Shown: one piece after another, positions 1-55,846 of the stretch
Layout: each line of letters starts with the position of its first letter
Position numbering within the stretch: the stretch's first letter is position 1
Source: an uncultured Solibacteraceae bacterium
GTDB lineage: Bacteria > Acidobacteriota > Terriglobia > 20CM-2-55-15
Direction: 5' to 3'
Length of the DNA: 64,000 nucleotides
Assembly (NCBI GenBank): GCA_964584785.1
Contig: CAZPBY010000001.1
Coordinates: forward strand, 74,718-138,717
Notes under the pieces: model-generated
Seen by the model: the letters and a program-made list of their open reading frames with translations, nothing else
Database searches by the model: none
Told to the model about the DNA's origin: nothing
Translations under genes and position numbers: made by a program

Positions 1-190
1 GCTGGTGTGTTGCGGATTCAGCGCCCACTGGGGCCACGATTGAGCATTGGCGAAAAAAGCAAAAAGCACCATTAGGCTGCTGAATCGGACTATCGATAAC
101 AAGCGTTTCACGGGACCTCCTTCAAGTCGTGCGCAGCACGGCTGTTTTCGCCACTATCACTACACTTCGACGGGGCCTCCGATGGCTTAT

Positions 191-9301: not shown

Positions 9302-12148
9302 TCAGCGCGATGGTTTCGGAACCCAATTCAGGATGACTGTAATCGGAGAACTCAGAGAATCGCCTACTGTTGAATTGAGCATGAAAGATTGACCGTCCGG
9401 TAAGACAACGTACTGCTGCCGAAAGACGTTGACCGCGGTGCTGCCGATATTCGTCAGGAAGAGCGGAACCGGAGTACCGGGTTCCAACTCTTCGCCGTTA
9501 CGCAGGGATTGGATCGGAACCGCCATCATTCGATCATCCGGAGCAATGTAGAACAATTCCTTACCGTTCGGGTTCCAGCGCACCTGAGTGCCCCCGTCTG
9601 CGGTGACTGGCGTATCCGATCCCGAACCTGGAAATCTCCGCAGGTAGATTTCATTGCGGCCGGTCTTGTCGGATTGATAGGCGATCCATTTCCCATCCGG
9701 AGAGAACTGCGCGAGCTGTTCGTTGAATTCAGTTTTAATGACCTCTCGCGGAGTTTTGTCGCCTTCCATCGGGAGAACCCAAAGGTCTATGCCAGTTTGC
9801 GAAGTCAGGATGCCGTATAGCAGGAATCGCCCATCGCGTGACCAGTCCATCGGAAACTTCGGCTCTGCCGTGGACAGGAGAGTACTCTCGCCTTCCCCAG
9901 TTGGGGCGCTGAGTAGTTTCGAGTGCAAGTTGATGGCCCCACCAGCGCCTTCGTCTTCGGCGAACACGATGCGTAAGCCGTCCGGAGACCAAAGCGGATA
10001 GAGGTCGTCTCGCGGACTGACGGTGATTCGATCCCAAAGATGGCGCACGCGGTCATAGGACCAGATATCCATGTTCTCATTGACGAGCCTGAAAACACCC
10101 ACGTGACGGCCGTCCATGGAAAGGCCCGGACCGAGGGCAGCCGAGTCGGGATAGGTGACACGTTCGAGTTCTTTGCCTGTTCGATCGACCCAGACGAGCT
10201 GCCGTAGATTGCTGTCCGGTGACGGCGTTCGATATGCGATGGGCCCTGCCTGCGACGCCGACAGATAAGTTCCTCCGTTGACACCCTGCGCAATTGGAAA
10301 TGGCTCTCCCGTGACCTCCAGGCGATCTGCATCGAACGCCTGCGCGAACAGTGTTTGCTGGCGAACGAACAAGAGATGTCCAGTGGCGCTATACACGGCG
10401 GCTGAATCCGCATCGAACAAGCGTTTGGCATCCGGCTTATCAAGCTGGCCAACATACACGCCGCGAGCTTCAGCATTTCCACCGACGAAAAAAACAAAAT
10501 GACGGCCATCCGGCAGGAACTGGGGAAAGACGTGAGACCGATGAGTGGATTCGAGCCGCGTTACCGGCATCGGCTCTCCGCCCGCCGCTGGAATTCTAAG
10601 CAGAGGAACGCCAGGAGTCTTCGAAAACAGGATCACGTCGTCCGTGTTCCAGGTAAGCCCTTGCGGCAAGCCCGCGACCTTGAGGATGGTCGTCGCCACT
10701 CCCTTGTCGAGGTCGAAACGCTTGAGCTTGGAATCCGCATTGAAGACAATCGACCGGCTATTGGGTGACCAGCTCGGCGCCCCACCTCCCGCCGTTCCCG
10801 GACGAGGACGGGCAGACGTGGAGTCCAACGAACTCAGCCACAAGTGCACCTGCCCCTCAAATGGGGCATTGAAGACAATACTTCGCCCATCCGGCGAAAG
10901 GGCAATAGAACGGCTGCGTGCCGGTGGCGTATTGATCTCGAGACGGACCTCCGCCGCGGCAGCACGAGGTCTCGAGGCCAAAACACCGAAGACAACGGCT
11001 GCAATCGTTACCAGAGCTAATACGGATACCCAGGCAATGCGTTCGCCACGGCGCGAATCCGATTTCGCGGTTTCAAAGCGGTCCGCTGTATTCACTCGCG
11101 AATCGGCGACCTCGAGCTGCACATCATGGAAGTCGCGCAGCCGCAATGCCTGGTCTTTCTGCAAACTGCGCCGCAGCAAACGGCGGATACTCTCCGGCGT
11201 CGAGGCAGGCAATCGGCTCCAATCCGGCTCGCTCTTTAAAATCACGGCAATTATTTCGCCCACCGTCTCACCTGGAAAGGCGCACTGTCCAGTGAGCATT
11301 TCATAGAGCACGCAGCCAAATGCCCACACGTCCGAACTGCGATCGGCCTCCTTTCCGCTCGCCTGTTCCGGTGACATGTATTGCGCGGTTCCCAAAATCA
11401 TTCCGGGTATGGTGGGAGCCATTGTCGGCGAATTTGAAAGCTCGGAAACCGTGCCACTCGCCGCACGCGTCTTCGCCAGGCCAAAGTCGAGGACTTTAAC
11501 GGTGCCCTTCTCCGTAACTTTGATGTTCGCGGGCTTCAGGTCGCGATGAATGATCCCTTGTTCGTGCGCCGCTTCGAGTGCCTGAGCAATCTGACGCGAA
11601 ATCGATAGCGCCTCCTCGAGTGGAATGGGTTGCCGCGCGATGCGTTCCGCCAGCGTCGGTCCTTCAATCAACTCGAGCACGAGTGCGTGGCGCCCCTCAC
11701 CCTGTTCCAGGCCATAGATCGCGCCAATGTTGGGATGACTCAACGAAGCGAGAACGTGCGCTTCGCTGGTAAAACGGGCGAGCCGGTCGGCGTCCAGAAT
11801 AAAGCTCTGCGGCATGACTTTGACGGCGACATCGCGCCGGAGCTTCAGATCATGCGCGCGATACACTTCCCCCATGCCGCCTCTACCAATTAAAGAGTGA
11901 ACCTGGTAATGCGCGATCGTCCGGCCGATCAGCTCCGATGAATCGTTTCCAACGAGATTGGCTGCGATATTGGATAAGTCCCTGTCGAGGACGTTGTCTG
12001 CGATTCGCTGAAGTAATAAAGACTCCACCTCACGCCGCAATTCCGCATCGGCACATGCTTGCGTCAGAAAAGAAGAACGTTCAGGCGCGGCCAGCTCAGC
12101 GGCCGCCTGATAGAGTTTTTCAACTTCTTTCCAGCGCTCCGGCGTCAT
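9302..12148 (-). CDS. Ser/Thr protein kinase with C-terminal TolB-like (PD40) beta-propeller
   Basis: Hanks kinase motifs (GRGGMGEVYRA, VAVK, HRDLKPANI, DFGLAK). A transmembrane segment. PD40-type repeats (FSPDGKWIAYQSD...). ATG chosen at 12148 (MTPERWKEVEKLY); the track ORF extends to 12340. Confidence 0.85.
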   Translation of the reverse strand: MTPERWKEVEKLYQAAAELAAPERSSFLTQACADAELRREVESLLLQRIADNVLDRDLSNIAANLVGNDSSELIGRTIAHYQVHSLIGRGGMGEVYRAHDLKLRRDVAVKVMPQSFILDADRLARFTSEAHVLASLSHPNIGAIYGLEQGEGRHALVLELIEGPTLAERIARQPIPLEEALSISRQIAQALEAAHEQGIIHRDLKPANIKVTEKGTVKVLDFGLAKTRAASGTVSELSNSPTMAPTIPGMILGTAQYMSPEQASGKEADRSSDVWAFGCVLYEMLTGQCAFPGETVGEIIAVILKSEPDWSRLPASTPESIRRLLRRSLQKDQALRLRDFHDVQLEVADSRVNTADRFETAKSDSRRGERIAWVSVLALVTIAAVVFGVLASRPRAAAAEVRLEINTPPARSRSIALSPDGRSIVFNAPFEGQVHLWLSSLDSTSARPRPGTAGGGAPSWSPNSRSIVFNADSKLKRFDLDKGVATTILKVAGLPQGLTWNTDDVILFSKTPGVPLLRIPAAGGEPMPVTRLESTHRSHVFPQFLPDGRHFVFFVGGNAEARGVYVGQLDKPDAKRLFDADSAAVYSATGHLLFVRQQTLFAQAFDADRLEVTGEPFPIAQGVNGGTYLSASQAGPIAYRTPSPDSNLRQLVWVDRTGKELERVTYPDSAALGPGLSMDGRHVGVFRLVNENMDIWSYDRVRHLWDRITVSPRDDLYPLWSPDGLRIVFAEDEGAGGAINLHSKLLSAPTGEGESTLLSTAEPKFPMDWSRDGRFLLYGILTSQTGIDLWVLPMEGDKTPREVIKTEFNEQLAQFSPDGKWIAYQSDKTGRNEIYLRRFPGSGSDTPVTADGGTQVRWNPNGKELFYIAPDDRMMAVPIQSLRNGEELEPGTPVPLFLTNIGSTAVNVFRQQYVVLPDGQSFMLNSTVGDSLSSPITVILNWVPKPSR

Positions 12149-12993: not shown

Positions 12994-13073
12994 CGAAAAA
13001 TCGAGGTCAGCCCGGTTGTTGTCTTTTTTCGGAACAATAAAAGGATCACAACCAGGCTGACCTCGATTTTTTC
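12994..13073. terminator. bidirectional intrinsic terminator between convergent genes
   Basis: CGAAAAATCGAGGTCAGCC ... GGCTGACCTCGATTTTTTC: a 19-nt inverted repeat with an A-run upstream and a T-run downstream. The ~42-nt centre can itself fold. GAAAAATCG and CGATTTTTTC are duplicated on either side. Confidence 0.45.
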
Positions 13074-17772: not shown

Positions 17773-20397
<2,625 letters not shown>

Positions 20398-20628: not shown

Positions 20629-23298
20629 TTATTTCTTCTGGGTAGCAGCGAGCCAGTTGACGACGACCGCGATGGGCGGAACGGCAGATGGTTCGGAGGC
20701 CGGCGGTTGCAGCACCAGGAATCTCTCACCATCCGGGGTGACATCATACTTGCCGTTGGTAAAATCCGAACCGGTGTTCCGCGTTTGAAACAGCGGCCTT
20801 GGAATGCCCGTTTCAATGGTGGTTCCGTTCGGCTTGACATCGACTGCCATCAACTTTCCATCTGGAGCGAGATAGAATATTTCCTTTCCATCCTTCCGCC
20901 AACGAGGTATTCCGCCTCCCGCATTTGATACCTGACGTCGGTCCGTCATGGACGGAAAGGCGGCGACCCATACTTGGGTCGAACCCGACTCATCGGAGTT
21001 GTAGGCTATCCAGCGGACGTCATACGACAGATTGAACTGCCTGCTTGTCGAAGGACCACCAACCAGCCGCACGGGTGTTGGATCACCGGTCAACGGGATA
21101 GCGGATACCGATTGATCTTCCGAACTTCGGTAAATGATGTAACGTCCATCCTTTGACCAGTCATCGATGGTTCCACTGTCCTTAAAGAGCGACGTCTCCT
21201 CACTTCCTCCTACATTCTTTCTATAAACGTGGTTGGAGCCTTTGCGGTTGGACGCGAATACAACTTCTTGTCCATTGGGTGACCAGACTGGATCAATGGA
21301 GCTGGAGGGTCCGAAGGTGAAGCGCGATAGGATGCCGGTCGATAGCTCTGCGAGCCAGAGCTCGTAACTGCCGATCCTCGGATCGAAACGGTCGAAAACC
21401 GCTCGCTTACCGTCGAGTGAAAGGTGGACATTATTGAAAAAATCGGGGTCGCCAATTGTTCCGAGCGGTCGCCCTGAGCGGTCGAACCAAGCCAATTGAG
21501 CGCCCCGAGCGTTTTCGGGGCCTCCATAAGCAAGAATGCCCGTACTCGACGTAGATACGCTGGCGAGCCAACCATTCTGGCCCACATCTTCTGCTACAAG
21601 AAACGCCTCTCCTCGAGTCTCCAGGTCGGCTAAGTCAAATGGCTGTGCCATCAAGGAATTTCCTCGCACCCACAGCAGATGACCGTCGCTATAGATTGTG
21701 CGAGTGTTCACATTCAGGACCCGCTTTCGGTCCCTCGAATCGAGAGAGCCAACGTAGATTCCACTTACTTCGGCCTCCGAGCTGACGACCCCATATAGAA
21801 AATGCCGGCCATCTGGTAGGAAAAAGGGGAATATGTGCCGAGCTTCATGTGAATTCAGCAATGTTACCGGTGCGCGATCTCCCCCTCTGGCGGAGAGGCT
21901 GTAGATACCCGTGTCCGAGCCGCCGCAGAGAAGGACGCCATCGCGATTCCACGTGCCGAACCCACACGGTGTGTTACTGACCAGTTCAGGAGGGCCGCCG
22001 CCAACCGCGATCTTCTTGAATTTTCCACCGGCGTTAAAACCAATAAACTTGCTGTCCGTCGACCAGGACGGCGCACCTCCGCCATCCGTGCCTTGCAAAA
22101 TTCGCGCGTCTAGTGAATCAATCCCACGAACCCATAGCTTCGATGTAGGTTCGTCTATTGCACTGAAAACAAGGTACCGGCCATCGGGAGACAGTGCAAA
22201 CTCCGGAACACCCGAACTCTGAAAGACCTTCTGAGGTGGTGGAGGAATCGTGAAACGAACAACGGTTGTGTTGCGAGTCGGCGGCGAACGCCAATACGCA
22301 ATCGCAACGCTGGCTGCGGCGACGACAAGCGCGATGCCAGCCACGAACCACGCCCAACGTTCACGAGTCTGTCGAGGCTGTTGGATAACACCCGCGGCAG
22401 CGTTCGACGCCTCTTCGATCTCGATTCGTGCGTCAGCAATGTCGTGAAGACGGCGGTTTGGATCCTTCTGAAGTGCGCGTCGCAGGAGCGTCCGAATCGA
22501 AAGTGGTGTTTCGGCGGGGAGCCTCGTCCAGTCAGGCTCTTCGGCGACGATCTGCGCAAGGACATCGGTTGTTGTCTCGCCGTCGAATGTGGGGCGTCCG
22601 CTTAACATCTCGTACAACACGCAGCCCCAGGCCCAGATGTCCGTGCGCTTATCGATGTCTTTGCCGCGCGCCTGCTCCGGCGACATGTAGCCTACGGTGC
22701 CGAGGATGAGGTTGTCTTCGGTCGAGACAACCGCCTTCGTCACCATGTCCGATGACGCAATCTTGGACTCGAAAATCTTTGCCAACCCGAAGTCGAGGAC
22801 CTTCACCGTGCCGTCTCGCGTGATCTTGATGTTGGCGGGTTTCAGATCGCGATGAACGACTCCCTTCGCGTGAGCCGCTTCCAGTGCCTCAGCTATCTGG
22901 CGAGCGATCGCCAACGCTTCTTCTACCGGCACACGGCCACGAGCAATACGCTCGGCGAGCGCGTCGCCATCGATGAACTCCAGGGCCAGACCACAGAGCC
23001 CATCGCTTTCTTCGAGACCGTAGATGGCTGCGATTCGCGGATGATTCAAGGAGGCAAGAAGCTGCGCTTCGCGATGAAATCGGGCGACCCGTTCGCGATC
23101 CTGAGCGAACGCTTCGGGCAGCACTTTGATCGCAACGTCACGATTCAGTTTCGAGTCGCGCGCCCGATAGACTTCAGCCATTCCACCGGCCCCGATGGAC
23201 GCGATGATTTCGTACGGTCCGAGCCGTGTTCCGGCAGCCAGCCGCCAGGACGACTGAATCCCACTGACCATTTGCTGCCGGTCTTCAGGCCGATCCAT
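20629..23298 (-). CDS. Ser/Thr protein kinase with TolB-like beta-propeller (paralogue 3)
   Basis: GAGGMAEVYRARD, HRDLKPANIKI, DFGLAK. A transmembrane segment. PD40 repeats. Alternative start at 23271. Confidence 0.85.
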   Translation of the reverse strand: MDRPEDRQQMVSGIQSSWRLAAGTRLGPYEIIASIGAGGMAEVYRARDSKLNRDVAIKVLPEAFAQDRERVARFHREAQLLASLNHPRIAAIYGLEESDGLCGLALEFIDGDALAERIARGRVPVEEALAIARQIAEALEAAHAKGVVHRDLKPANIKITRDGTVKVLDFGLAKIFESKIASSDMVTKAVVSTEDNLILGTVGYMSPEQARGKDIDKRTDIWAWGCVLYEMLSGRPTFDGETTTDVLAQIVAEEPDWTRLPAETPLSIRTLLRRALQKDPNRRLHDIADARIEIEEASNAAAGVIQQPRQTRERWAWFVAGIALVVAAASVAIAYWRSPPTRNTTVVRFTIPPPPQKVFQSSGVPEFALSPDGRYLVFSAIDEPTSKLWVRGIDSLDARILQGTDGGGAPSWSTDSKFIGFNAGGKFKKIAVGGGPPELVSNTPCGFGTWNRDGVLLCGGSDTGIYSLSARGGDRAPVTLLNSHEARHIFPFFLPDGRHFLYGVVSSEAEVSGIYVGSLDSRDRKRVLNVNTRTIYSDGHLLWVRGNSLMAQPFDLADLETRGEAFLVAEDVGQNGWLASVSTSSTGILAYGGPENARGAQLAWFDRSGRPLGTIGDPDFFNNVHLSLDGKRAVFDRFDPRIGSYELWLAELSTGILSRFTFGPSSSIDPVWSPNGQEVVFASNRKGSNHVYRKNVGGSEETSLFKDSGTIDDWSKDGRYIIYRSSEDQSVSAIPLTGDPTPVRLVGGPSTSRQFNLSYDVRWIAYNSDESGSTQVWVAAFPSMTDRRQVSNAGGGIPRWRKDGKEIFYLAPDGKLMAVDVKPNGTTIETGIPRPLFQTRNTGSDFTNGKYDVTPDGERFLVLQPPASEPSAVPPIAVVVNWLAATQKK

Positions 23299-24575: not shown

Positions 24576-25066
24576 TTGAGAATCCTAAGGTAGAATCTTA
24601 AAAAACTCAAAGCAGGTATGGTGTCCGCATGCGCAGCCGCTGGCCTGTCCGGGGCGGGTGCCTCCCCAGGAGGTAATTCACCTTGTAAGAGGTCGTTATT
24701 TTGCCGGGGCGCTTCAGCGTCCAGGTGTTTCTGCACTCACCCAGTGGCCAGGCGAAGCAGCTGTTCAGCGCGCCTCTCGCAACCACGGCCAACAAGCCAC
24801 AAGGCGCTGCAGACCGTCGAGCGGCGTGTGGGCCGGCTAGTCGTCAGTTGGACCGGCATATTGCGTCTCGACGGCTAAGCCTTGGAAATGATCAGGATGC
24901 CTGCGGGGCCAGACCCGGACCATAGTACCATTCGCGAGGACATGGCTCGGTTTTACGATCTCTTTCACCAAGGATTGGTACAGCGGATCAGGAAGATCCG
25001 CCGGACAAGGAAGTCACGCGAGGCAGGATACTCAGGAACATCAAAAACAAGGACTCTTAAGAGTTG

Positions 25067-25112
25067 ACGGAGCGAATCAGCCAAGATGGCGGGTTCGCTC
25101 CGTTTTCATTTT
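25067..25112 (+). terminator. rho-independent terminator
   Basis: ACGGAGCGAA (25067..25076), a 17-nt loop, then TTCGCTCCGT (25094..25103), followed by TTTCATTTT. It sits directly after the TGA of a 61-codon ORF (24882..25067). Confidence 0.5.
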
Positions 25113-37082: not shown

Positions 37083-37895
37083 TCAGTGGCTCAGCGCGTA
37101 CACAATCAAATTGATGGCCATCTGATACGCGAAATCCGAAAACGGAAGTGGGTACTTCGGATCGTCGGCGAACTCGAAAGCTTCGTTCAGGTGCGTGTTG
37201 TGGTTGATAACAACCATCAACCGACCTTGACGGTCCCTCACGCCTTTGCATTCCACGACCACCCCGTCGAGTTCGTAAGTAATTCCGCCATTCAGTGTGT
37301 ACGCGTAGCTGGGGACCTGGACCAATTCGTCAATGTGGTAAAAAGCGCCAAAGAGTGGATCTATCAGTTCGATATCCTCAATCGTTGCGCCGGGGAGCAC
37401 CTTCTTGAATTCTGCGGCAAAGTTGTCCCATTCGAGTGAGCCCCAGAAGTCATCCAGTATCCAGAAGCCACCGCGTGCGAGATATTCACGTAAGATCGCG
37501 GCATCGCCCTCGGTCAGGACCATTTGGCCCGGCTGGCTCGTATAGATGAATGGATATTTGAAGAGATCGGAATCGTTGATCGCGACGACACGTTCGTAAT
37601 TGGCGATATTGAGATTCGTCAGCCTTTTCAGTCCGGCGATCAGTAGTAGATCGCTCTTGGGATAGTCGTTGAACCAATTTTTGTAGTACCGCGGCATGCG
37701 GCCGTTATAGATCATCCGCGCGAATACAAACTGGTCGGTCGGGCGTTTGTCTTGTTTGATGCGCTCTTCGTCGTTATAGTTTCCGTCGAAGAGCGGACGG
37801 AACTGAGCAACCAAACCGGACGCGCCCACCATGAGCGCTAAAACAAAACTAAAGTGTTTCAACGGTCCGCCAGGGTCTTCCAGTTTTTGGCGCAA
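37083..37895 (-). CDS. secreted DUF4159-like protein
   Basis: Signal-peptide-like N-terminus (LKHFSFVLALMVGASGLVAQ). Block LREYLARGGFWILDDFWG. The DUF4159 assignment is from memory of the family, not a search. It overlaps the 3' end of the upstream PDZ gene by 37 nt. Confidence 0.5.
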   Translation of the reverse strand: MRQKLEDPGGPLKHFSFVLALMVGASGLVAQFRPLFDGNYNDEERIKQDKRPTDQFVFARMIYNGRMPRYYKNWFNDYPKSDLLLIAGLKRLTNLNIANYERVVAINDSDLFKYPFIYTSQPGQMVLTEGDAAILREYLARGGFWILDDFWGSLEWDNFAAEFKKVLPGATIEDIELIDPLFGAFYHIDELVQVPSYAYTLNGGITYELDGVVVECKGVRDRQGRLMVVINHNTHLNEAFEFADDPKYPLPFSDFAYQMAINLIVYALSH

Positions 37896-39085
37896 TCCGG
37901 GTAGGTTACCGCCAAGTAATCGTAAACACTTTGCCAGTCCGGCTTACCTTTCCATTTCATGACGAGACTTGTGGCTTCGTCTTTGTGGTTTGTAGAAACA
38001 AGGACGAACGCCCGAAAAGCGTCTAGATATGGTGGGAGAGATTGAAACATGGGTCCGCCGAATCCCTGCGCCAACCTTAATGCCTCCTGGAATACATCGA
38101 TGTCTCTTAAGTGAGCGGCAAGCGCGACATGTCGAAGGGCGGAGTCTCTCGCGTAAGCGCCTGTTCCGTAACCTTCCGCGCTTTTCAGTTGGTATTCGAT
38201 GGCTTGGACATGGTGCTCGTACGCCTCACGCCATTGTTCTCGGTTCGCGGCAATCGTGCTCAGGCAGTCTTCTTCAACAGAGAACCCATGGTTATTCAGC
38301 GGTAGTCTGTGCTCGACGCGATAACGGATGTTTTGTTCGGCTTCGTCGCTGAGTTTTTGCCGCGCCAGAAGTTGCGCCAGGTTCAATCTATGGTTCACGT
38401 CATTCGGCGCCATCGCGACGAGTTTGCGACGCACGGGTATCGCCGGCCACGGCCGTCCATAGTGTTGAAGCCTGAAGGCGGTCGCCGAGAGTTCCACCGT
38501 TGTGGATATGGTTTCGACTAACTCCCGAGTGAGCTTGTCCTGTTCGCTGCCGGGAACAGGAACATCATTTGGCAGAAGCAGAAGTTTCGCGATGAGCGAG
38601 TTCCTCTGCGTCAAGAGATGGGCAGCTTCAGCCTGTTGAGCCAGCGTGCCGGCCGTGTCCATGTCCCCAGCTTCGATGCGCAGCAGTATTTGCGACATCG
38701 AATACGACCATTCTTCACCGGTTATTCCCACCGCCGGAGGCATAACAATTTCTGAAGAAGTGATGTACTTCCCTTCCCGCCAGAAGGTGAATTTCACGAG
38801 AGAACCGCGGAGCCGATCCCGAATTGACACAAACTGGGTAGTACTGCTGACAGGTTCGTCGTTGATCTTGAGAATCAGATCTCCTTCGAGTAGTCCCGCT
38901 TCGTCGGCAGCGCCGCCCTTAGTCATCGAGGCGACGAGTACTCCAGACTCAATTCGAGTGGCTCGCAGTTTTTCACGAATGGGCTCAAGCATCTTCTCAA
39001 TCGGGTCGTCTTGGCTGAACCCGTTTGTCGTCTGCAAGACGACAAAGAAAAGAACGCCACGTAGAACACGCATCGTGCGTTGCAT
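37859..39085 (-). CDS. secreted PDZ-domain protein with ~300-aa C-terminal domain of unknown function (paralogue A)
   Basis: Signal peptide, PDZ (GVLVASMTKGGAADEAGLLEGDLILKINDEPV), conserved C-terminal domain ending CAKNWKTLADR. Its ATG at 39085 overlaps the upstream stop as TGATG. Confidence 0.7.
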   Translation of the reverse strand: MQRTMRVLRGVLFFVVLQTTNGFSQDDPIEKMLEPIREKLRATRIESGVLVASMTKGGAADEAGLLEGDLILKINDEPVSSTTQFVSIRDRLRGSLVKFTFWREGKYITSSEIVMPPAVGITGEEWSYSMSQILLRIEAGDMDTAGTLAQQAEAAHLLTQRNSLIAKLLLLPNDVPVPGSEQDKLTRELVETISTTVELSATAFRLQHYGRPWPAIPVRRKLVAMAPNDVNHRLNLAQLLARQKLSDEAEQNIRYRVEHRLPLNNHGFSVEEDCLSTIAANREQWREAYEHHVQAIEYQLKSAEGYGTGAYARDSALRHVALAAHLRDIDVFQEALRLAQGFGGPMFQSLPPYLDAFRAFVLVSTNHKDEATSLVMKWKGKPDWQSVYDYLAVTYPDCAKNWKTLADR

Positions 39086-40290
39086 CAGCGTTCGGCCAGG
39101 GTTTTCCAGGATTGTGCACACTGCGGAAAGGCGCCTGCCCAGTAGTCGTACACCCTTTTCCATTCCGGCTTATCCTTCCAACGATTGACGAGTTCACGCG
39201 CGTCATCCTTATGGTTCGCCGCGACAAGCACGTAAGCCTCAAGAGCATCGACAAATGCTGTCCATTCCGCAAAGCCTTTTCCGCCGAAACTGAGGGCGAA
39301 ACTTCTTGCCTGTCGGAATACATCGATATCCCTCAGATGTGCGGCGATGTTGAGGTGCCGAAGGGCTGAGTTCCGGGCTTGCGCTTCCGTATCAAAATCC
39401 GATTCGTACTTCAGGGATCGCAGATTGTGGTCGTAGGCACCTTGCCAGTCTTCGCGGTTTCCGGCGACAACCCCTAAAACTCTTTCGGCAACATGAAACC
39501 CGTGCGCGCTCAGTCCGGGTCGGGTGCGGTCCAGAATGTAGTGAACGTTCTTCTCCGCCTCATCGTTCTGCTCGAGATCGGCAAGCAACGATGCGAAATT
39601 CAGGCGCTTGCTGACGTCTTCCGGCGCGGACGCGACAATCTTCCGATGTAATGGGATTGCGGGCCACGGACGTCCATGGGTCTGCAATAAGGAAGCCGGC
39701 GCGATGCTCTCATTCGGCGTAAGCATGTTCGTCAATTCGCGCGTCAGCTTATCCTGATCGCTTCCAGGCCCGGGCGCCTCTCCAGGCAAGACCAGCAATT
39801 TGACGATCAGCAAGTCTTTCGGGCTGAGTGAATGGTTTTCCTCCGCTTGCTGGACAAGCGTGCCGACCGTATCCACATCACCAGCATCCAGACGAAAGAG
39901 GATTTGCGCCATTAGATAGGACCAGTCCGATCCACTAATGTTCACGGCAGCCGGAAGTACAATCGGTGTCGTTGTGATGTACTGTCCATCCCGCCAGACT
40001 GTAAATGTCGACACAGTTCCACGGTATTTATCTCGAAGGTTCGCGAATGATCCGGCGTCGCTGACGGTGTCACCATTCAACTTCACAATGAGATCTCCCA
40101 GCTTCAATCCCGCACGATCTCCCGCTCCGTCCCTGGCGATGCTCGTCACAATCAACCCGGAATCGACTTTTGCCGCCCTCAGCTTCTCAGCCACCGACGC
40201 CACTATCTTATCGGCGGGCGTCTGTTGAGCATCTATGGCAGTGCTCTGGAAGAATGCGATCAGACAGATCAAAACGGCGCGATGTGACAT
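39085..40290 (-). CDS. secreted PDZ-domain protein (paralogue B, tandem duplicate)
   Basis: MSHRAVLICLIAFFQSTAIDAQQ signal. PDZ (GLIVTSIARDGAGDRAGLKLGDLIVKLNGDTV). Same C-terminal domain, ending CAQSWKTLAER. Confidence 0.7.
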   Translation of the reverse strand: MSHRAVLICLIAFFQSTAIDAQQTPADKIVASVAEKLRAAKVDSGLIVTSIARDGAGDRAGLKLGDLIVKLNGDTVSDAGSFANLRDKYRGTVSTFTVWRDGQYITTTPIVLPAAVNISGSDWSYLMAQILFRLDAGDVDTVGTLVQQAEENHSLSPKDLLIVKLLVLPGEAPGPGSDQDKLTRELTNMLTPNESIAPASLLQTHGRPWPAIPLHRKIVASAPEDVSKRLNFASLLADLEQNDEAEKNVHYILDRTRPGLSAHGFHVAERVLGVVAGNREDWQGAYDHNLRSLKYESDFDTEAQARNSALRHLNIAAHLRDIDVFRQARSFALSFGGKGFAEWTAFVDALEAYVLVAANHKDDARELVNRWKDKPEWKRVYDYWAGAFPQCAQSWKTLAER

Positions 40291-40620
40291 ACCATCAGGA
40301 GGATATCCCGGCAAACGGGATGTAACAAACAAAACACTGGCGTCTGGAAATGGCCTTCAGTCTTCCCCGTCAATACGAACAGAAATGCAAAGCGACATCG
40401 GTTCAGAGCACCTGGCGGACAAAAGTGTCGCAGGCCGCCGGCACAGGTAGGGATAGTCGACAGATTTCGGGGCGCGCGGTAGAATTCGCCGTCCTGCATG
40501 TCCCGCGACGACAACGTGAGCGCCGGCTTCGATGCTGCTCATGATCTTCGGGCGAGCTTTAGAGGCGTCGCCGCGCGTTGCGGAACCGGCGCACCAACGG
40601 TTGGGAGGATTTGAGTTCCC

Positions 40621-40710
40621 GATGAGCGGAGCGAATGCAAGCCCGACAGGGCGCAGCTATTAAACGATGAGCGGAGCGAATGCAAGCCCGACAGGGCGCA
40701 GCTATTAAAT
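40621..40710 (+). repeat. two tandem copies of a 45-nt element carrying a 13-codon ORF ([13 protein letters not shown]), abutting the MFS start codon
   Basis: GATGAGCGGAGCGAATGCAAGCCCGACAGGGCGCAGCTATTAAAC, then the same ending ...AAAT. Each copy contains ATG...TAA. The second TAA is 3 nt before the MFS ATG (40712). A third copy lies at 50635. Confidence 0.7.
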
Positions 40711-40711
40711 A

Positions 40712-42154
40712 ATGTCACGGATTGCTGCAAGATTGGAGAGGCTGCCATTCTCGGTGTTTCATCGCCGCCTGCTGCTGATGGGCGGTCTTGGTTACTGCTT
40801 TGACGCCATGGACGCCGCGGTCATCGCCTTCGTGTTACCGGCGTTAATGACTCAGTGGTCGTTGACGAGCGTGCAAGCAGGCGTTCTCTCGAGCGCCACC
40901 TTCATCGGGTACTTCTTTGGGGCATTGGGGGCAGGCACGGCCGGCGATCTGATCGGCCGGCGCAGGATCATGATGTGGGCTCTGGTGATCTACTGCGTGG
41001 CCTCCTTCATCAGTGCCTTCGTTACATCGGCCACTCCGTTTTTCTGGCTGCGCGTCCTTGCGGGCGTCGGCACAGGCGCGGAAAGCGTCATCGTCGCTCC
41101 GTTTCTTTCGGAGTTCGTGCCGAAAACCTACCGCGGTCGATTCATTGGCGCCTTGGCGGGTTTCTTTTCATTCGGATTTTTCGGTGCCGCCGTCCTCGGC
41201 TACGCGCTGGTGCCGGCCACACTGTGGGGATGGCGGCTTGCGATCGTCATTACCGCACTCCCGATCCTGTTGCTCCTGTGGTGGCGAAGGGCGTTGCCGG
41301 AGTCGCCGCGCTGGCTCGAGAGCCGCGGCCGAATATCCGCGGCCGAAGCCGTTATGACGCGCATCGAAGAGGAAATTCTCCAGACACGCCGGCAACCGCT
41401 GACGCAGCCGGAACCCGTGCCGGCTTTCGATTTCAATCAGCAAGGCGGGTCGCAGGGCGGATCGGTCTGGACCAATATCGCAACCCTCGTTTCTCCTCCG
41501 CTGACGCGTATCGCCGTAATGACGTGGGCGCTGTGGCTGTCGATCACGTTTTCCTATTACAGCTTCTTTACCTGGATACCGACTCTGCTGGTTCAAAGCG
41601 GCATGACCATGACGCGCAGTTTCGCCTATTCGATCTCGATTTATGCCGCGATGATTCCCGGCTACTACTCTGCAGCTTTTTTCAACGACCGCATCGGCCG
41701 TCGGGCGATCATTGTGTCGTACCTGCTCCTGGGTGGTGTGGCGGCGATAGGGCTTGCCATGGCCCACTCCAACCCGCAGATTATTCTTGCCGGCGTGTGT
41801 TTATCTTTCTTTATGAACGGGGTCTACGCAGGCGTGTATGCCTACACTGCCGAGGTCTTTCCGACGCGGATCCGAACGACGGGAGTCGGTCTGGCGTCAG
41901 CGGTGGGCCGACTGGGCGCCATCAGTGCTCCGATTCTCGTCGGAGCGATCTTCCCCAGATTCGGTTTCGCAGGTGTGTTCGGTGTGACGACATTCGTTTT
42001 GATCGCCGGAGCGGTGGTGGTTTTTGTGTTCGGGATACGCACGGAGGGGCGTTCCCTGGAGGCCATTGCTGCCGGGGCACAACTGACACGGAAGAGGAAT
42101 TCGAAATTGAACGAGTCCTGCATCTCAAATCCGAAATCCGAAATTTCAAAATGA
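40712..42154 (+). CDS. MFS transporter (metabolite:H+ symporter type)
   Basis: 480 aa with 12 predicted TM segments. MFS motifs (GDLIGRRRIM, ...FNDRIGRR). Confidence 0.85.
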   Translation: MSRIAARLERLPFSVFHRRLLLMGGLGYCFDAMDAAVIAFVLPALMTQWSLTSVQAGVLSSATFIGYFFGALGAGTAGDLIGRRRIMMWALVIYCVASFISAFVTSATPFFWLRVLAGVGTGAESVIVAPFLSEFVPKTYRGRFIGALAGFFSFGFFGAAVLGYALVPATLWGWRLAIVITALPILLLLWWRRALPESPRWLESRGRISAAEAVMTRIEEEILQTRRQPLTQPEPVPAFDFNQQGGSQGGSVWTNIATLVSPPLTRIAVMTWALWLSITFSYYSFFTWIPTLLVQSGMTMTRSFAYSISIYAAMIPGYYSAAFFNDRIGRRAIIVSYLLLGGVAAIGLAMAHSNPQIILAGVCLSFFMNGVYAGVYAYTAEVFPTRIRTTGVGLASAVGRLGAISAPILVGAIFPRFGFAGVFGVTTFVLIAGAVVVFVFGIRTEGRSLEAIAAGAQLTRKRNSKLNESCISNPKSEISK

Positions 42155-42238
42155 ACCTCGACACCCCGCGTCCCGGCGTTCAATTTTGAGATTTCGGTTT
42201 TCGGATTTGAGATGCAGGACGGGTGCAATTTCAAAATT
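42097..42238. repeat. ~140-bp foldback (two ~60-bp imperfect inverted arms) spanning the MFS stop codon
   Basis: Left arm gaattcgaaattgaacgagtcctgcatctcaaatccgaaatccgaaatttcaaaatgaac. The reverse complement of the right arm matches it at ~88%. A ~21-nt spacer separates the arms. The MFS stop (42152..42154) and its last ~19 codons lie in the left arm. Confidence 0.5.
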
Positions 42239-49455: not shown

Positions 49456-49475
49456 GGATGTCACGATCGAGCTGT

Positions 49476-49570
49476 GTTTCGTCACGAAGCCCGTCGCTGC
49501 GCTCCGGGTTCTGCACAATGTGCCAAACCTGACAGAACCCGGAGCGCAGCGACGGGCTTCGTGACGAAAC
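49476..49570. repeat. perfect 38-bp inverted repeat (95-bp hairpin element) between the secreted-protein gene and galT
   Basis: GTTTCGTCACGAAGCCCGTCGCTGCGCTCCGGGTTCTG, a 19-nt loop, then the exact reverse complement. There is no U-tract after it. Confidence 0.8.
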
Positions 49571-49598
49571 GCAAAGTCCGCTCCCGTGGATAACGCGA

Positions 49599-50675
49599 AT
49601 GAATGATCCAAACAAGTGGGAAGAACGATGGCATCCGCTGCGGGAGGAATGGGTCATCATCGCGGCGCACCGTCAGGACAGGCCGTGGCATGGCGAAACG
49701 AAAGGTGCGACGTCCGCTAATGCCTCTACGCCGGAGTACCACGAGCGATGCTATTTCTGTCCCGGTAACCGGCGAGTCGGCGGCGCCCGTAACGAAAACT
49801 ACAGCGGCATATTTGTTTTCGATAACGATCATCCCTGCGTTGGACCAAACGCGCCAGATGTGCTTGATCCTGCGACCGGCATCTACCGCAATCGGCCGGC
49901 ACAAGGCCTGGCCCGCGTCATCTGCTACAGCCCGAAACATAACCTCACGCTCGCCGAGATGGAGATTCCTGAAATCGAAAACCTTATGAAAGCCTGGCGA
50001 GATCAGTACGTCGAACTAGGCGACAGGCCGCAAGTCCGCCACGTTTTGGTGTTCGAGAATAAGGGCGAGGTCGTCGGCGTTTCGAACCCGCATCCACACT
50101 GTCAGATCTACGCGACCAATTTTGTGTTCAAGTTCATCGAGACCGAGGCGGAGGTTTCACGCAAGTATTACGAAGACAAAGGCCGGAGCCTGTTCGAAGA
50201 CATCATCAAAACCGAACGTGACGATGGACGCCGCGTCATTTATGAAAACTCTTCGGCGATCGCATTCATGCCGTACTTCGCGAGGTACGCTTACGAATCC
50301 TATGTTGCGCCCCGGGCGATGCATCCGGATCTGGCGAGTCTCAACAAAGACGAAATAAAGGACCTCGCCGAGGCTTTGAAAATCATGCTGGTGCGTTATG
50401 ACAACTTATGGCGGATGCCGTTTCCGTACGTGATGACGCTGCACCACGCTCCGCTGGATGGCGCGAATCACGACGGCTTTCATTTCCACATCGAGTTCCA
50501 TCCTCCACTGCGCAAACCGAATCTGCTGAAATATCTCGCCGGCCCGGAGATCGGCGGCGGTAACTTTCTCAGTGACACATTGCCGGAAGAAAAGGCGCAA
50601 GAGCTGAGGAACTTACCTGACGTTCACTACAAACATGAGCGGAGCGAATGCAAGCCCGATAGGGCGCAGCCTTAA
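49599..50675 (+). CDS. galT: galactose-1-phosphate uridylyltransferase (HIT superfamily)
   Basis: Zn site CYFCPGN. Active-site HPHCQ. Overall GalT colinearity. The C-terminal 13 residues and the stop come from the 45-nt repeat copy. Confidence 0.85.
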
Positions 50676-50679
50676 GTAA
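50635..50679 (+). repeat. third copy of the 45-nt element/13-14-codon ORF ([14 protein letters not shown]) at the galT/IMPase junction
   Basis: ATGAGCGGAGCGAATGCAAGCCCGATAGGGCGCAGC is near-identical to 40621..40710. It overlaps the galT 3' end in another frame. Its TAA (50677..50679) is 1 nt before the downstream ATG at 50681. Confidence 0.6.
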
Positions 50680-50680
50680 G

Positions 50681-51685
50681 ATGAACCCGCGTAGCCTCCT
50701 TCAGCCGCTGAAAACCATTCACGACCGCATTCGGGACGCTGTTCAGGCAGCGACTGAAAATCAGCAACCCGGCGAACTCGCCCGCGTCCGGAGAGACGAT
50801 GCCGGCGACACGATCTACGGAATCGACGTCGTCAGCGAAGAGACGCTGCTGGACCTTTTTGAAGAGTTGAGTCAACGCGAGTCGTTTGTGTTGGTCGCTG
50901 AAGGACTGCGTGACGGCCAGATTGTTTTTCCTCGCGGCGCCGACGAAGCGAAAGTGACCTGGCGGATCATCGTGGATCCGATCGACGGAACACGCGGGAT
51001 CATGTATCAGAAGCGCAGCGCGTGGGTGCTGACGGGTCTCGCTCCGAATCGTGGACCTGAGACGTCGCTGCAGGATGTTGTGCTCGCGATTCAAACGGAA
51101 ATTCCCCTCATCAAACAACACCTTTCGGATCAGCTGTGGGCAATTCGTGGCCAGGGAGCCGAGGCGCTGCGCTACAACCGGCTCACCGGAACATACTCCA
51201 CATTCGTGCCTCGGCCGTCACAAGCGAGCACGATCGCGCATGGTTTCGCGATGATTTCGAGATTCGTTCCCGGCGTGCGTGACGAATTGGCCGCAATCGA
51301 TGAAGAGATCGTGATCGCCGCGCTGGGGCCGGTCGAACCAGGAAAGGCGCACTGCTTCGAGGATCAGTACATTTCCAATGGCGGCCAGCTTTACGAATTG
51401 ATGGCCGGCCACGACCGGTTTGTCGCCGACTTGCGGCCGTTGCTGGAACCCATTGCCGCACGACGCGGAATGCGGCTTGGCCTTTGCTGTCATCCTTATG
51501 ATCTCTGCACTGCGTTGATCGCAACGGAACTGGGTGTGATGATCACCGACGTCCGCGGCGGAGTCCTGGACGCGCCCATGAATGTTTCTGCAAATGTCGC
51601 GTGGGCCGGATATGCGAATGAGCAGATCCGGCGCCAGATCGAGCCCCTGCTGCAATCGGCTTTGCGTAAACGCGGGTTGTTGTGA
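50681..51685 (+). CDS. inositol-monophosphatase/FBPase superfamily protein
   Basis: IVDPIDGT metal-binding motif and a WVLTGLA-type second motif. 334 aa. Confidence 0.6.
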
Positions 51686-53104: not shown

Positions 53105-55846
53105 CTAGTGGAGAAGCGCCGGCCAGTTCACGATCACGTTTAACTGAGGGGAATCCTGGAGAGTCGCGCTTACTAAAAAGGGGCGGCGGGCATCGGCCGT
53201 TACCTCATAAAAGTTACTGCCGCTGGGCAGCAAAAACAACTCGTGAGGGGACGAAGTCGTGATGGAGCGACCTTCCAGCTTGATGTCGACGCTCTGCAAC
53301 TTTTTTTCGGGTGAGATGTAAAACAACTTGTGCCCGTCGGCGCTCCAGGCTGGGACGGTTCCTCCGCGTGCGGAAATCTGGAACTTCCGCTCCGCATCCG
53401 GAAAAGAACGAACATAGATTTCATACCGCCCCGATTCGTCGGACTCATATGCAACCCAGCGGGGACTCGGCTCCGGGGAGAATCGCGCGTTGAGTTCATT
53501 AAACCGCGTGCGGAGGTACGGTCTGGGTTGCGCGTCCTCGGGTGAACTTCCCGTGGACGCCACGGGCAGGATCCAAAGATCGCGATTGGTTTGCGTATCG
53601 CTGCTGAAGTAGATGATTTGACGGCCGTCGCCCGACCAGTCCGTCGCATGAGCAAATTGGTGGGTCATCTGACGTTCGCTGCCGTTTCCTGTTACGTCTT
53701 TGAGGAACAGGTAAGGGGGCCGTGTGAACACCATCTGCCGGCCATCGGGCGACCACAACGGATCAAAATTAATGCCCGGGCCGAATGTAAATCTCGTCGA
53801 TACATCCCGATCGATATCGACGATCCACAAATCGTAGTCCGGACCGCTCGTGTTGCGCGCTAAAACAATACGGCGGCCATCGGGCGACAAAGCGAAGTTC
53901 CTGACCAATCCCGGTTCTCCGACTGTGCCAATGGGCCTGCCCGATGAATCCACCCATGTCAACTGGCGATGATTGCCGGAAGAGCGATAAAGAAGAACGC
54001 CACTGCCCGACGCGTCCGCCTCTATTCGATATGAGTATCCGCTGTCAACCGGATCTGCGATGGCCGTAAGTTCGCCCGTCAGTTTGAGGGAGGTTGCATC
54101 AAACTCCTGTGCCACAAGGGTCCCATTGCGCCGCCATAGAAGGTACGTATTCCCACGCACTCCTTTCGCAAAAACTGCATTCGAATCCGTAATCAAAATC
54201 CGAATGGCCTCGTCGGGTTTTGTCAACGATGCAACGTATATGCCCGTGTCGCTGGAATTCTCGCTGACGCTGAAATACAAGAAGTGACCACCGGACAAGA
54301 ACTGCGGCCACATATGAAATCTTTCGCGACGTGCGGCGTTGAGCGCCGTGAACTGCACCGGTTCGCCGCCCGACGCAGGCACTCGGAACAACGTTTGTGC
54401 GGCGACCGAAAAAATAATTTGTCCGTCCTCACTCCAGGCGCCGCCTCGTGTTCCGAGCGCCATTTTGCAGATTATGGCCGGTGCCCCACCTGCAAGATCG
54501 ATGCGTTGCAGCTTTCCTGCGGCAAAGAATGCAAGAGACTTGCTGTCGGGAGACCCCAAAGGTTGCTGTGCTCCTTCCGTATCAGGAATCAATCTGGCCT
54601 CGGCGGCATCCAGAGGCCGGATCCACAGTCCCGTCTTCTCCTTCACCGTGGCAACAAACGCGATGGTTGTTCCGTCTGGCGATACGGCAAAACTAGCCTG
54701 AAAAAACTGGCCCCCCTCGGGGGGCACAATCTGCAAACGGAATGCGCGTTGTCCATTCGAGGTGTTGCCGCGGAAGCGAAACATCGACCAGCCGACAGCT
54801 ACAACGCCGAGCAACAACGCCACAGCGATTATCCATCGCCACGCGGAACGCGAAGTTGTGGCCAGCTGCTTTGGCGTTTGCGCCGCCCATTCCAATTCCG
54901 CCTTAACATCCGCCGCGTTCTGCCAGCGATCGTCCGGTTCAAGAGCCAAACATCTTTCCATGATGTGAGCGCACTTCTCATCAAACACGCGGATGGTGCT
55001 TTGACCTTGTACATAGAAATGTCCGGCCGCCATCTCGAACAGGATGAGGCCCAACGCGAAGATGTCGGTCCGCGCATCCGTCTCGCGGCCGGCGGTCTGC
55101 TCGGGCGCCATGTATTGCGGCGTCCCCATCACGGCTCCACGCTGCGTTATTGTCGCGTCGCCTTTGAATTTTGCCAAACCGAAGTCCAGAACTTTCACTC
55201 CGGATTTCGTGACCATGATGTTGCCGGGTTTCAGGTCGCGATGAGTAATCCCGCGACTGTGTGCGACGGCGAGAGCGTCCGCAATCTGTGCCCCATATCG
55301 CAGTACTTGCGGTATTGCGAGAGCGCCACTCTTCAGCCGGACCGACAACGATTCTCCTTCGACGAGTTCCATCACCAGATAATCCAGGCCGTCAATCTGC
55401 AGCACGTCGTGGAGAACGCAGATGTGTGGGTGATTCAACGCCGCGAGAGCCTGAGCTTCGCGCTCGAAGCGCTGCTTCATTGCGACATCGGTGGAGAATT
55501 GCGGCGGTAGTGCTTTGATGGCAACGGTACGGCCCAGCCGGGAGTCGCGGGCGCGAAAGACCTGGCCCATGCCGCCCTGGCCCAACAGTTGTTCGATGAC
55601 ATAAGGTCCGATGCGAGCACCGATCGTGAGCAGGCTTTTCGTTTCATTCACTTCATTGTTCATAGCACCAACGGCCCGAATGAAGTCGCCGGTTTTGTTG
55701 TCCTGCTCGAGCAACCCTTCCACTTCGCGCCGCAGCTCGGTATCCGTACCGCACTGTTCATTGAGGAATTGCCGACGCGCCTCCGGTCCGAGTTCGTTTG
55801 CAGCGTGATACAACGACTCCACTTTTTTCGACGATTCACGTTTCAT
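53105..55846 (-). CDS. Ser/Thr protein kinase with TolB-like beta-propeller (paralogue 4)
   Basis: GQGGMGQVFRARD, HRDLKPGNIMV, DFGLAK. A transmembrane segment. PD40 repeats. ATG at 55846. Confidence 0.85.
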   Translation of the reverse strand: MKRESSKKVESLYHAANELGPEARRQFLNEQCGTDTELRREVEGLLEQDNKTGDFIRAVGAMNNEVNETKSLLTIGARIGPYVIEQLLGQGGMGQVFRARDSRLGRTVAIKALPPQFSTDVAMKQRFEREAQALAALNHPHICVLHDVLQIDGLDYLVMELVEGESLSVRLKSGALAIPQVLRYGAQIADALAVAHSRGITHRDLKPGNIMVTKSGVKVLDFGLAKFKGDATITQRGAVMGTPQYMAPEQTAGRETDARTDIFALGLILFEMAAGHFYVQGQSTIRVFDEKCAHIMERCLALEPDDRWQNAADVKAELEWAAQTPKQLATTSRSAWRWIIAVALLLGVVAVGWSMFRFRGNTSNGQRAFRLQIVPPEGGQFFQASFAVSPDGTTIAFVATVKEKTGLWIRPLDAAEARLIPDTEGAQQPLGSPDSKSLAFFAAGKLQRIDLAGGAPAIICKMALGTRGGAWSEDGQIIFSVAAQTLFRVPASGGEPVQFTALNAARRERFHMWPQFLSGGHFLYFSVSENSSDTGIYVASLTKPDEAIRILITDSNAVFAKGVRGNTYLLWRRNGTLVAQEFDATSLKLTGELTAIADPVDSGYSYRIEADASGSGVLLYRSSGNHRQLTWVDSSGRPIGTVGEPGLVRNFALSPDGRRIVLARNTSGPDYDLWIVDIDRDVSTRFTFGPGINFDPLWSPDGRQMVFTRPPYLFLKDVTGNGSERQMTHQFAHATDWSGDGRQIIYFSSDTQTNRDLWILPVASTGSSPEDAQPRPYLRTRFNELNARFSPEPSPRWVAYESDESGRYEIYVRSFPDAERKFQISARGGTVPAWSADGHKLFYISPEKKLQSVDIKLEGRSITTSSPHELFLLPSGSNFYEVTADARRPFLVSATLQDSPQLNVIVNWPALLH

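Follow-up and report, generated by a model that had tools for sequence, protein, structure and literature searches.

Two tandem 45-nucleotide units at a transporter start codon belong to an acidobacterial family of short repeats placed at translation-initiation sites and resembling the MIRU repeats of mycobacteria

In the 64,000-nucleotide stretch of an uncultured Solibacteraceae genome analysed here (hereafter the window), two 45-nucleotide (nt) repeat units stand head to tail and flush against the start codon of a gene for a major facilitator superfamily (MFS) transporter. What is the reason for the presence of such units at this position? A preliminary description of the locus had left two answers: a leader-peptide or upstream open reading frame (uORF) device controlling translation of the transporter, or a small dispersed repeat co-opted as a 5' untranslated region. 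Our findings favour the dispersed repeat. With a probability of roughly 0.7, the tandem 45-mer represents a MIRU-like short interspersed repeat, non-autonomous and apparently mobile, in two copies that arose by local duplication; it would be tolerated because it would relay ribosomes to the gene. The features at the transporter locus are the following.

40457..40485, + strand: promoter-like site by consensus match, TCGACA-17-TAGAAT, 10 of 12 positions
40604..40608, + strand: GGAGG, a Shine-Dalgarno (SD)-like motif read from the sequence, 13 nt 5' of the ATG of unit 1
40622..40666, + strand: repeat unit 1, 45 nt, GGAGCG-head sub-type, matching the family profile (nhmmer E = 1e-15)
40667..40711, + strand: repeat unit 2, 45 nt, identical over 40665-40709
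40712..42154, + strand: MFS transporter gene (MFS/sugar-transporter family), start codon flush against unit 2

The tandem was recovered by Tandem Repeats Finder with a period of 45, 2.0 copies, 100% match and a score of 180 at 40620-40709, and a 44-mer from it occurs exactly twice, against no occurrence expected from shuffled sequences. The mini open reading frame (ORF) of either unit consists of ATG, 12 codons and TAA, corresponding to a 13-residue peptide. That of unit 1 runs from ATG 40622 to TAA 40661-40663 and is followed after 3 nt by the next ATG, and that of unit 2 runs from ATG 40667 to TAA 40706-40708 and is separated by 3 nt (ATA) from the transporter ATG at 40712. The preliminary description had this arrangement right. 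The start of the transporter was validated by its N-terminus, MSxIAARLERLPF, which is conserved in orthologues without the element. Both units share the derived tail GCTATTAAA, and the duplicated block is CGATG...TTAAA, indicating that the doublet arose by local tandem duplication and not by two insertions. The gene upstream of the doublet encodes a PDZ protein (39085-40332, minus strand) and is transcribed divergently, so units 1 and 2 occupy the promoter and leader region of the transporter. With the promoter-like site in use, the MFS mRNA would have both units in its 5' leader, and GGAGG is possibly the native ribosome-binding site (RBS) of the transporter, now feeding unit 1. No terminator/antiterminator alternative was found between the uORFs and the MFS gene. 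A promoter carried by the element, giving a leaderless mRNA, was considered and rejected: by eye, no convincing -10 box was seen in the tail at a suitable distance, and the sole promoter-like site, at 40457-40485, lies upstream.

The window contains one more copy, between two other genes.

49599..50675, + strand: galT (galactose-1-phosphate uridylyltransferase), with the Pfam C-terminal domain ending near residue 346 of 358
50635..50680, + strand: 46-nt repeat unit 3, an insertion exactly at the start codon of the following gene
50681..51685, + strand: inositol-monophosphatase-like (IMPase-like) gene, its ATG directly after unit 3

This copy, already noticed in the preliminary description, shares a 36-nt core with the doublet, with one mismatch at a loop position, and the stop of its own ORF, at 50677-50679, leaves a gap of 1 nt before ATG 50681. 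Given where the GalT domain ends, the last ~12 residues of galT and its stop codon (TAA 50673-50675) are supplied by unit 3. The element is absent from this junction in all 78 of 78 IMPase-type orthologous loci, which come from metagenomes and show 62-75% identity. In many of these element-free loci the galT ...HYK codons run to within 5-10 nt of the ATG, as in cactacaagctcacATG; in the window, cactacaaac is followed by the ATG of unit 3, and the native second codon follows the second ATG. With unit 3 and one ATG removed, galT would end at a TAG overlapping the IMPase-like gene. An exact look-up of the MFS and IMPase-like proteins of the window found neither on record. A maximally sensitive profile search detected no copy in the window beyond these three units. 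A copy of the core that had been placed in a terminator at 25067 proved to share just the 10-mer CGGAGCGAAT with the element, which is at chance level (11 matches with at most one mismatch, against 9.6 expected), and the terminator is unrelated. The hairpin there (25066-25103) is strong and of the intrinsic-terminator type (z = -7.35).

The transporter locus also has empty counterparts: three MFS orthologues with 75-85% identity have the same start codon and N-terminus without the element. The absence of the element from these 3 and from the 78 IMPase-type loci indicates that both insertions in the window are lineage-specific and took place at start codons. Outside the window, a unit of ~46 nt interrupts an IS91-family transposase in three metagenome-assembled genomes (MAGs; loci L020, L064 and L070), at an internal ATG and directly behind the zinc-binding motif CxxCGGRR, and excision of the unit in silico from L070 restores a continuous Zn_Tnp_IS91 domain (E = 1.2e-16). 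IS91 itself is reported to insert next to CAAG or GAAC; an IS91-type CAAG target in the tail of the unit was considered and set aside, conservation there being only 53-87% per position. Copy number also differs between orthologous loci, with two units in L001 and one in L088. The copies examined are lineage-specific insertions, and the arrays expand in tandem. Two of the three carriers of the IS91 copy are labelled Verrucomicrobia/Chthoniobacterales, suggesting that the insertion sequence (IS) carried the unit across lineages or that the contigs were mis-binned.

To what does this repeat belong? The family was fished with an exact 21-nt core, using one genome per species. At least 112 loci in other genomes match this core, which, with the empty orthologous sites, bears out the preliminary suggestion of a small dispersed repeat co-opted as a 5' untranslated region. 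A profile search of the fished loci and the window detected at least 170 units in 129 arrays (110 singletons, 10 doublets, 5 triplets and one array each of 4, 5, 7 and 9 copies). Among the matches listed, the carriers are about 18 Acidobacteriota MAGs, mostly Bryobacterales, with the labels Ca. Sulfopaludibacter (Bryobacterales, Solibacteraceae), 'gp5' AA63-68, other Terriglobia and Bryobacterales; the non-Acidobacteriota carriers in that list are the two verrucomicrobial-labelled MAGs with the IS91-borne copy. One MAG holds at least 25 loci, and the 64-kb window 3 units. No match to the element was obtained in the plasmid collection, and the literature gave nothing for the sequence string or for Solibacter/Bryobacter repeats. 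The single match in the viral collection, L196 (IMG/VR contig IMGVR_UViG_3300006854_000032), is one unit flush against an ATG that opens an ORF (MNDRTVGERV...). We regard the acidobacterial family as previously undescribed; it appears to work like MIRU and is not filed here as MIRU.

The unit is 45-47 nt long, with the consensus ATGAGCGGCTGCGAATGCAAGCCCGATAGGGCGCAGCCATCAAGAAA. It carries an imperfect palindrome, GGCTGCG...CGCAGCC, around GCCC-GAYA-GGGC, and a terminal A-rich tail (CATCAAGAAA); the terminal inverted arms match at 10 of 13 positions. The left edge is sharp, going from 0 bits at positions -20..-2 to an invariant ATGAGC, and the right edge decays after CATCAAGAAA, with 53-87% conservation per position in the tail. 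Two head sub-types co-exist within the same genomes. The GGCTGCG type (80 units, 13-nt head) forms a perfect 7-bp inverted repeat with CGCAGCC, and its consensus folds at -19.2 kcal/mol (z = -2.85) with its own AUG paired. The GGAGCG type (62 units, 12-nt head), to which the window copies belong, is one base shorter and has a degraded stem, and its consensus gives no significant fold (z = -0.37). The small hairpin per unit that the preliminary description had proposed is indeed predicted in each unit of the doublet, but it is no better than that of shuffled sequence (z = -1.58). Because of the one-base difference between the heads, ORFs starting at the unit ATG are read in different frames, and conservation is thus at the level of nucleotides and not of the peptide. 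The head sub-type is not associated with genomic context (p = 0.15), and the 45-nt type is enriched in arrays (12/19 vs 26/95, p = 0.006). A longer sub-family (L009, L026, L035, L057, L059, L078 and L110) carries a loop insertion of ~25 nt resembling a diverged core (GCGAAGCGCAAGCGCGATAGCGCG), and its inner stem shows a compensatory change from GCCC/GGGC to GCGC/GCGC. Copies fished with the 21-mer were too uniform for a formal covariation analysis.

A riboswitch or other known RNA motif was rejected as an identity for the element, whose loop is GAYA: Rfam 15 gave no match in the window at the gathering threshold, and relaxed thresholds yielded only noise, both around the element (E <= 10) and in four canonical-copy loci (E <= 1). 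Tandem mini-ykkC hairpins have an ACGR loop, which differs from GAYA. Some units are nested in a GTAG-headed palindrome (GTAGGCGCGGTC ... TTTCCGCGC) or in a second repeat family, CCTTCTCCCTCCGGGAG ... GGCCCGAAGGGCCGGATGAGGG. These nested units occur at L002, L017, L025, L030, L044 and L048 in MAG JBGPBY and at L019, L031, L032 and L099 in MAG CAMBFR, and the composites appear to have been amplified as wholes.

The position of the units relative to genes was assessed by fixed-offset statistics, codon periodicity and Pfam. These replaced naive ORF tests, since the background of the latter was 46% of random positions and longest-ORF calling miscalled obvious starts. The downstream gene is on the strand of the element in 98 of 120 arrays (82%; p = 1e-12), and several of the exceptions were seen on inspection to be miscalls of the crude gene caller. 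Both neighbours are co-oriented in 57 arrays, and some operon pairs were verified with Pfam. An ATG is found at offset +7..11 after the core in 59 of 126 arrays (47%), against 7% by chance (p = 8e-34). Where this flush ATG is lacking, an AGG-type motif (AGGAG-like, resembling an SD sequence) stands at the same offset in 23 of 67 arrays, against 5% by chance (p = 8e-14); this type of right flank accounts for 18% of arrays, and the left edge of these is still ATGA. GTG or TTG occurs at that right-flank offset in 7 arrays. The flush ATGs are real gene starts: 45/60 open ORFs of at least 60 codons, compared to 34% for random ATGs, codon periodicity (GC3-GC2 = 0.24) is seen only in the flush-ATG frame, and in one flush gene the pseudopilin N_methyl motif begins at residue 1 (Pfam). 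An SD-like motif is present in the unit tail for just 6 of 45 flush genes.

Scatter without positional bias, which the preliminary description would have read as the mark of a generic repetitive extragenic palindromic (REP)-like repeat, is therefore not what we observed; the bias to the sense strand immediately 5' of start codons is strong. The members of the family are short repeats that directly precede, in sense orientation, the A[T/G]G(A) motifs of translation-initiation sites. Usually this target is the start codon of a gene, in many cases one within an operon where stop and start overlap as ATGA; less often it is the SD sequence AGGAG. The flanking genes are unrelated in function (ABC permeases, DnaJ/MerR (DnaJ/HspR), SdhB-like, γ-glutamyltranspeptidase, VWA, pseudopilin, MFS, IMPase and a transposase), which argues that the family is not a regulon. 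At L102 (about 2520-2600), a histidine-kinase-like ORF of 568 aa takes its first six codons (MSGANA) from a truncated second unit, possibly a repeat-derived N-terminus.

The units also often overlap with neighbouring reading frames. Of the co-oriented genes upstream that show coding periodicity, 19/48 end at the TGA within the ATGA of the unit and 3/48 as TAATG or TGATG; sorted by frame, 19 of the 28 upstream ORFs that reach the unit in one of its three frames are in the ATGA-stop frame, where one third would be expected (p = 2e-4). On the downstream side, the distance from ATG to ATG is 47 nt in 19/27 cases of the GGCTGCG type. With this spacing the stop of the unit ORF falls in the next ATGA (-4 overlap), and since every unit starts with ATGA, tandem units chain by the same overlap. 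For the GGAGCG type the distance is 45 nt in 13/17, which places the unit in frame with the next ATG. At the 44 non-redundant flush junctions, the fate of the unit ORF is distributed as follows.

In-frame fusion with the gene: 11/44
ATGA overlap: 10/44
Stop at most 5 nt before the ATG: 13/44
Out-of-frame extension into the gene by 7-161 nt: 10/44

The geometry is thus compatible with fusion or coupling in 34/44. The window copies, with gaps of 3 nt and 1 nt before the gene ATG, have no overlap. The base following a flush ATG is A in 38/60, and this enrichment holds in every frame class (6/9, 13/19 and 10/16 of the 44 junctions), which points to a junction motif A[T/G]GA, resembling the 5' end of the unit, rather than to selection for a TGA stop. 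When direct repeats were checked, ATG was found on both sides in 59/126 arrays, and ATGA in 38/60 of the flush-ATG cases. A simple target-site duplication of ATGA was rejected: it is inconsistent with the 23 AGG-flanked arrays whose left end stays ATGA, and their left edge fits an ATGA borne by the element better. It is tempting to speculate that the ATGA belongs to the element itself, which is set down beside a motif resembling it; single-strand insertion guided by the hairpin, or recombination within a short core, would be examples of how this might happen.

How could a gene survive such an insertion? The unit would re-create the ATG and supply a short ORF. Ribosomes reaching the native initiation site, either from an upstream gene that stops in the ATGA of the unit or from an upstream SD sequence, would translate the unit ORF or ORFs and then be handed over to the gene, by the -4 ATGA overlap in the 47-nt sub-type, by in-frame read-through, or after a stop 0-5 nt before the ATG, as in the 45-nt sub-type and the window. 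For the transporter, the path might lead from the SD-like motif at 40604-40608 through uORF1, 3 nt, uORF2 and another 3 nt to the MFS gene. For the IMPase-like gene, ribosomes leaving galT (or the unit ORF) may stop 5 nt (or 1 nt) before its ATG and pass on to it. The uORF translational control suggested in the preliminary description may survive in this form: a ribosome relay common to the family is plausible from the way in which unit ORFs often overlap flanking stop and start codons, and it is not a device specific to this transporter.

Several observations weigh against this reading. The 10/44 junctions with an out-of-frame extension would be expected to interfere with the gene, and a stretch of 13-16 open codons is by itself nothing unlikely. 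Roughly 30% of arrays have no recognisable start beside them; among these are copies nested within other palindromic repeats, an array (L087) that precedes a terminator-like hairpin, and misprojected units of the long sub-family. Upstream of the unit ATG, an SD-like motif was seen in just 11/45 flush cases, against a background of 9%, and the one in the window, at 13 nt, is at a sub-optimal distance. No transposase was identified for the element, and the second ATG is compatible both with a target duplication and with the gene's own codon. The bait biased the sample to young, uniform copies, so that the conservation of the core is inflated, and gene calls in the loci were our own, based on ORFs and periodicity, with a Pfam check for a subset.

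The closest likeness is to MIRU, described as units that 'insert themselves at start codons' with an ORF coupled at -4 nt (PMC12548453; Supply et al., 1997, as summarised there). An earlier review (PMC3184786) describes MIRU as units of 40-100 bp, present in 40-50 copies at polycistronic locations; their sites occur both filled and empty, they have direct repeats of a tetranucleotide and imperfect inverted repeats, and their ORFs overlap the genes next to them. The acidobacterial unit, at 45-47 nt, falls in the same size class and occurs at tens of loci, in head-to-tail arrays whose copy number varies between genomes. It lies between co-transcribed genes in their orientation and has filled and empty orthologous sites and imperfect inverted repeats. 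For two further traits the likeness is partial: a short direct repeat on both sides (ATG) is seen in 59/126 arrays, 23 others having an AGG-type motif on the right, and the overlap of the unit ORF with flanking stop and start codons (-4 spacing) is common in the acidobacterial family but not universal. Both families can be read as start-codon insertions with translational coupling. They differ in host, MIRU being found in Actinomycetota and the present family in Acidobacteriota; the comparison is by published description, and homology is not expected. In contrast to MIRU, the acidobacterial family has two frame sub-types (47-nt ATGA-overlap and 45-nt in-frame), a sizeable class of its copies abuts an AGGAG SD motif instead of ATG, and the geometry is compatible with coupling in about three quarters of the flush copies only.

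Other known systems share some of these traits. Neisseria REP2 and Borrelia IR-A are repeats carrying an RBS and an ATG, and REP2 co-regulates genes (PMC3184786). Like the acidobacterial units, they are dispersed immediately upstream of ORFs and bring a ribosome-binding region and an ATG; unlike them, they are 120-150 bp long and promoter-bearing, are not tandem mini-ORF units and have no reported overlap with upstream stops. In the termination-reinitiation coupling of bacterial uORFs, a short upstream ORF ends a few nt from the main start or overlaps it as ATGA (PMC12548453). The unit ORF likewise ends within a few nt of the main start codon or overlaps it, but here a repeat unit that came in by insertion supplies it, the encoded peptide lacks conservation, and the uORF is tied to no particular gene family. 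With REP/RAYT repeats and the hairpin ends of IS200/IS605, the family shares an imperfect palindrome that is short and rich in G+C, a sharp end marked by a conserved tetranucleotide and the lack of a clear target duplication, and its sequence-specific flank would fit single-strand insertion of the HUH type beside a short target motif. In classical REPs, with palindromes of 20-40 nt, the head is GTAG and the preferred positions are 3' ends and convergent intergenic regions, whereas the acidobacterial head is ATGA and the bias is to the sense strand 5' of genes; moreover, the palindrome is present only in the GGCTGCG sub-type, and the sub-type of the window barely folds.

One may ask whether the two families represent convergent evolution. 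Tentatively, and with somewhat more doubt than confidence, we suggest that the acidobacterial repeat is a counterpart of MIRU, a second selfish mini-ORF family that homes to translation-initiation sites (A[T/G]GA), is guided by sequence and keeps host genes alive by ribosome relay. If so, homing to start codons would be a general strategy of bacterial mobile DNA and not a mycobacterial curiosity, and a comparison of the two families could reveal the mobilising enzyme. To our knowledge, the enzyme that mobilises MIRU is still unidentified. The acidobacterial family is not a new principle; it would add an independent, well-populated case, in an under-studied phylum, of a kind so far essentially limited to a single family, and a MIRU design in an unrelated phylum would argue that selfish DNA can exploit translational coupling as a general route to harmless insertion. 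With its many genomes, two sub-types and clear junction motif, it could be used to find the mechanism of mobilisation by phyletic co-occurrence. Start-codon insertions of this type reshape the 5' ends of genes and the C-termini of proteins, as seen in the 12-residue tail of galT and the two uORFs before the transporter. The repeats will mislead start-codon annotation in Acidobacteria MAGs, and the arrays could serve as variable-number tandem repeat (VNTR)-type markers for uncultured Bryobacterales.

Could the family instead be a domesticated translational module, spread because it benefits the host? Each unit would then be a portable SD-independent initiation region, a standby site or a site for a global RNA-binding regulator, and the downstream genes would form a post-transcriptional regulon. 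The sense orientation and the fixed offset to ATG or SD would suit such a role, and so would the A-rich, unstructured tail directly before the ATG, together with the scarcity of an own SD in flush genes (6/45). The Neisseria REP2 precedent, in which repeats with RBS and ATG co-regulate genes (PMC3184786), speaks for it as well. The high conservation of the core across about 18 MAGs would be a further argument, but it is inflated by the exact-match bait. What makes this explanation unlikely is that occupancy is not conserved at orthologous sites, that copies also interrupt a transposase gene and sit in other repeats or by a terminator-like hairpin, that about 40% of units, those of the GGAGCG type, have lost the structure, and that tandem arrays with as many as 9 copies make little sense for a regulator site.

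A still less probable explanation, to which we give little credence, is a generic extragenic palindrome of the REP or MITE (miniature inverted-repeat transposable element) type, unrelated to translation, with the bias to start codons resulting from purifying selection against insertions elsewhere and from chance. The imperfect palindrome with its 10/13 matching terminal arms, the many copies per genome, and the copies nested in GTAG-headed palindromes or lying before a terminator-like hairpin (L087) are what such an element might show. Selection alone, however, does not account for the invariant 5' ATGA, and it leaves unexplained the constant spacing of +8/+9 from ATG or AGGAG (p = 8e-34 and 8e-14), the 82% sense orientation and the excess of upstream stops in the ATGA of the unit; the classical GTAG head and the 3'/convergent preference were not seen.

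A dedicated cis-regulatory leader, which would respond to a signal and control translation of the MFS gene as a leader-peptide attenuator, as a tandem riboswitch-like RNA or as a protein-binding hairpin, is the least probable explanation and, as a gene-specific device, largely refuted: the flush tandem position, the short ORF stopping 3 nt before the ATG, the hairpin predicted in each unit, the significant fold of the GGCTGCG consensus that pairs its own AUG (z = -2.85) and the compensatory GCCC/GGGC to GCGC/GCGC change in divergent copies are all in its favour, but the element is missing from the three MFS orthologues at 75-85% identity, family units precede unrelated genes (DnaJ/HspR, SdhB, ABC permeases, VWA, pseudopilin, transposase), the peptide is not conserved, its frame differing between the sub-types, the fold of the window sub-type is no better than that of shuffled sequence (z = -1.58 and -0.37), Rfam has no matching family even at E <= 10, and there is no terminator or antiterminator alternative between the uORFs and the gene.

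The two tandem copies are thus best read as a MIRU-like repeat, and some other features of the window may be recorded beside them. Between the stop of the MFS gene (42154) and the start of an amidohydrolase gene (42281), an inverted repeat at 42100-42235 has 53-nt arms with 89% complementarity and a 30-nt loop; it contains runs of the heptamers AAATCCG / GATTTCG and could be a large terminator or another palindromic element. A second inverted repeat, with 41-nt arms, 98% complementarity and a 19-nt loop, lies at 49473-49573, between the end of a DUF5695 gene (49455) and the start of galT (49599). The PDZ gene next to the doublet is part of a tandem of paralogous PDZ-domain genes at 37859-40332 on the minus strand, encoding 434 and 415 aa, with ORFs overlapping by 79 nt. 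At 12996-13071, a strong hairpin of the intrinsic-terminator type has 33-nt arms flanked by A and T runs and looks bidirectional. Finally, the repeat families D1 and D3 of the window (11351-11593, 19810-20058, 22660-22899 and 55208-55288), which are 63-82% identical to the reference copies, have the look of conserved parts of genes that are paralogous.

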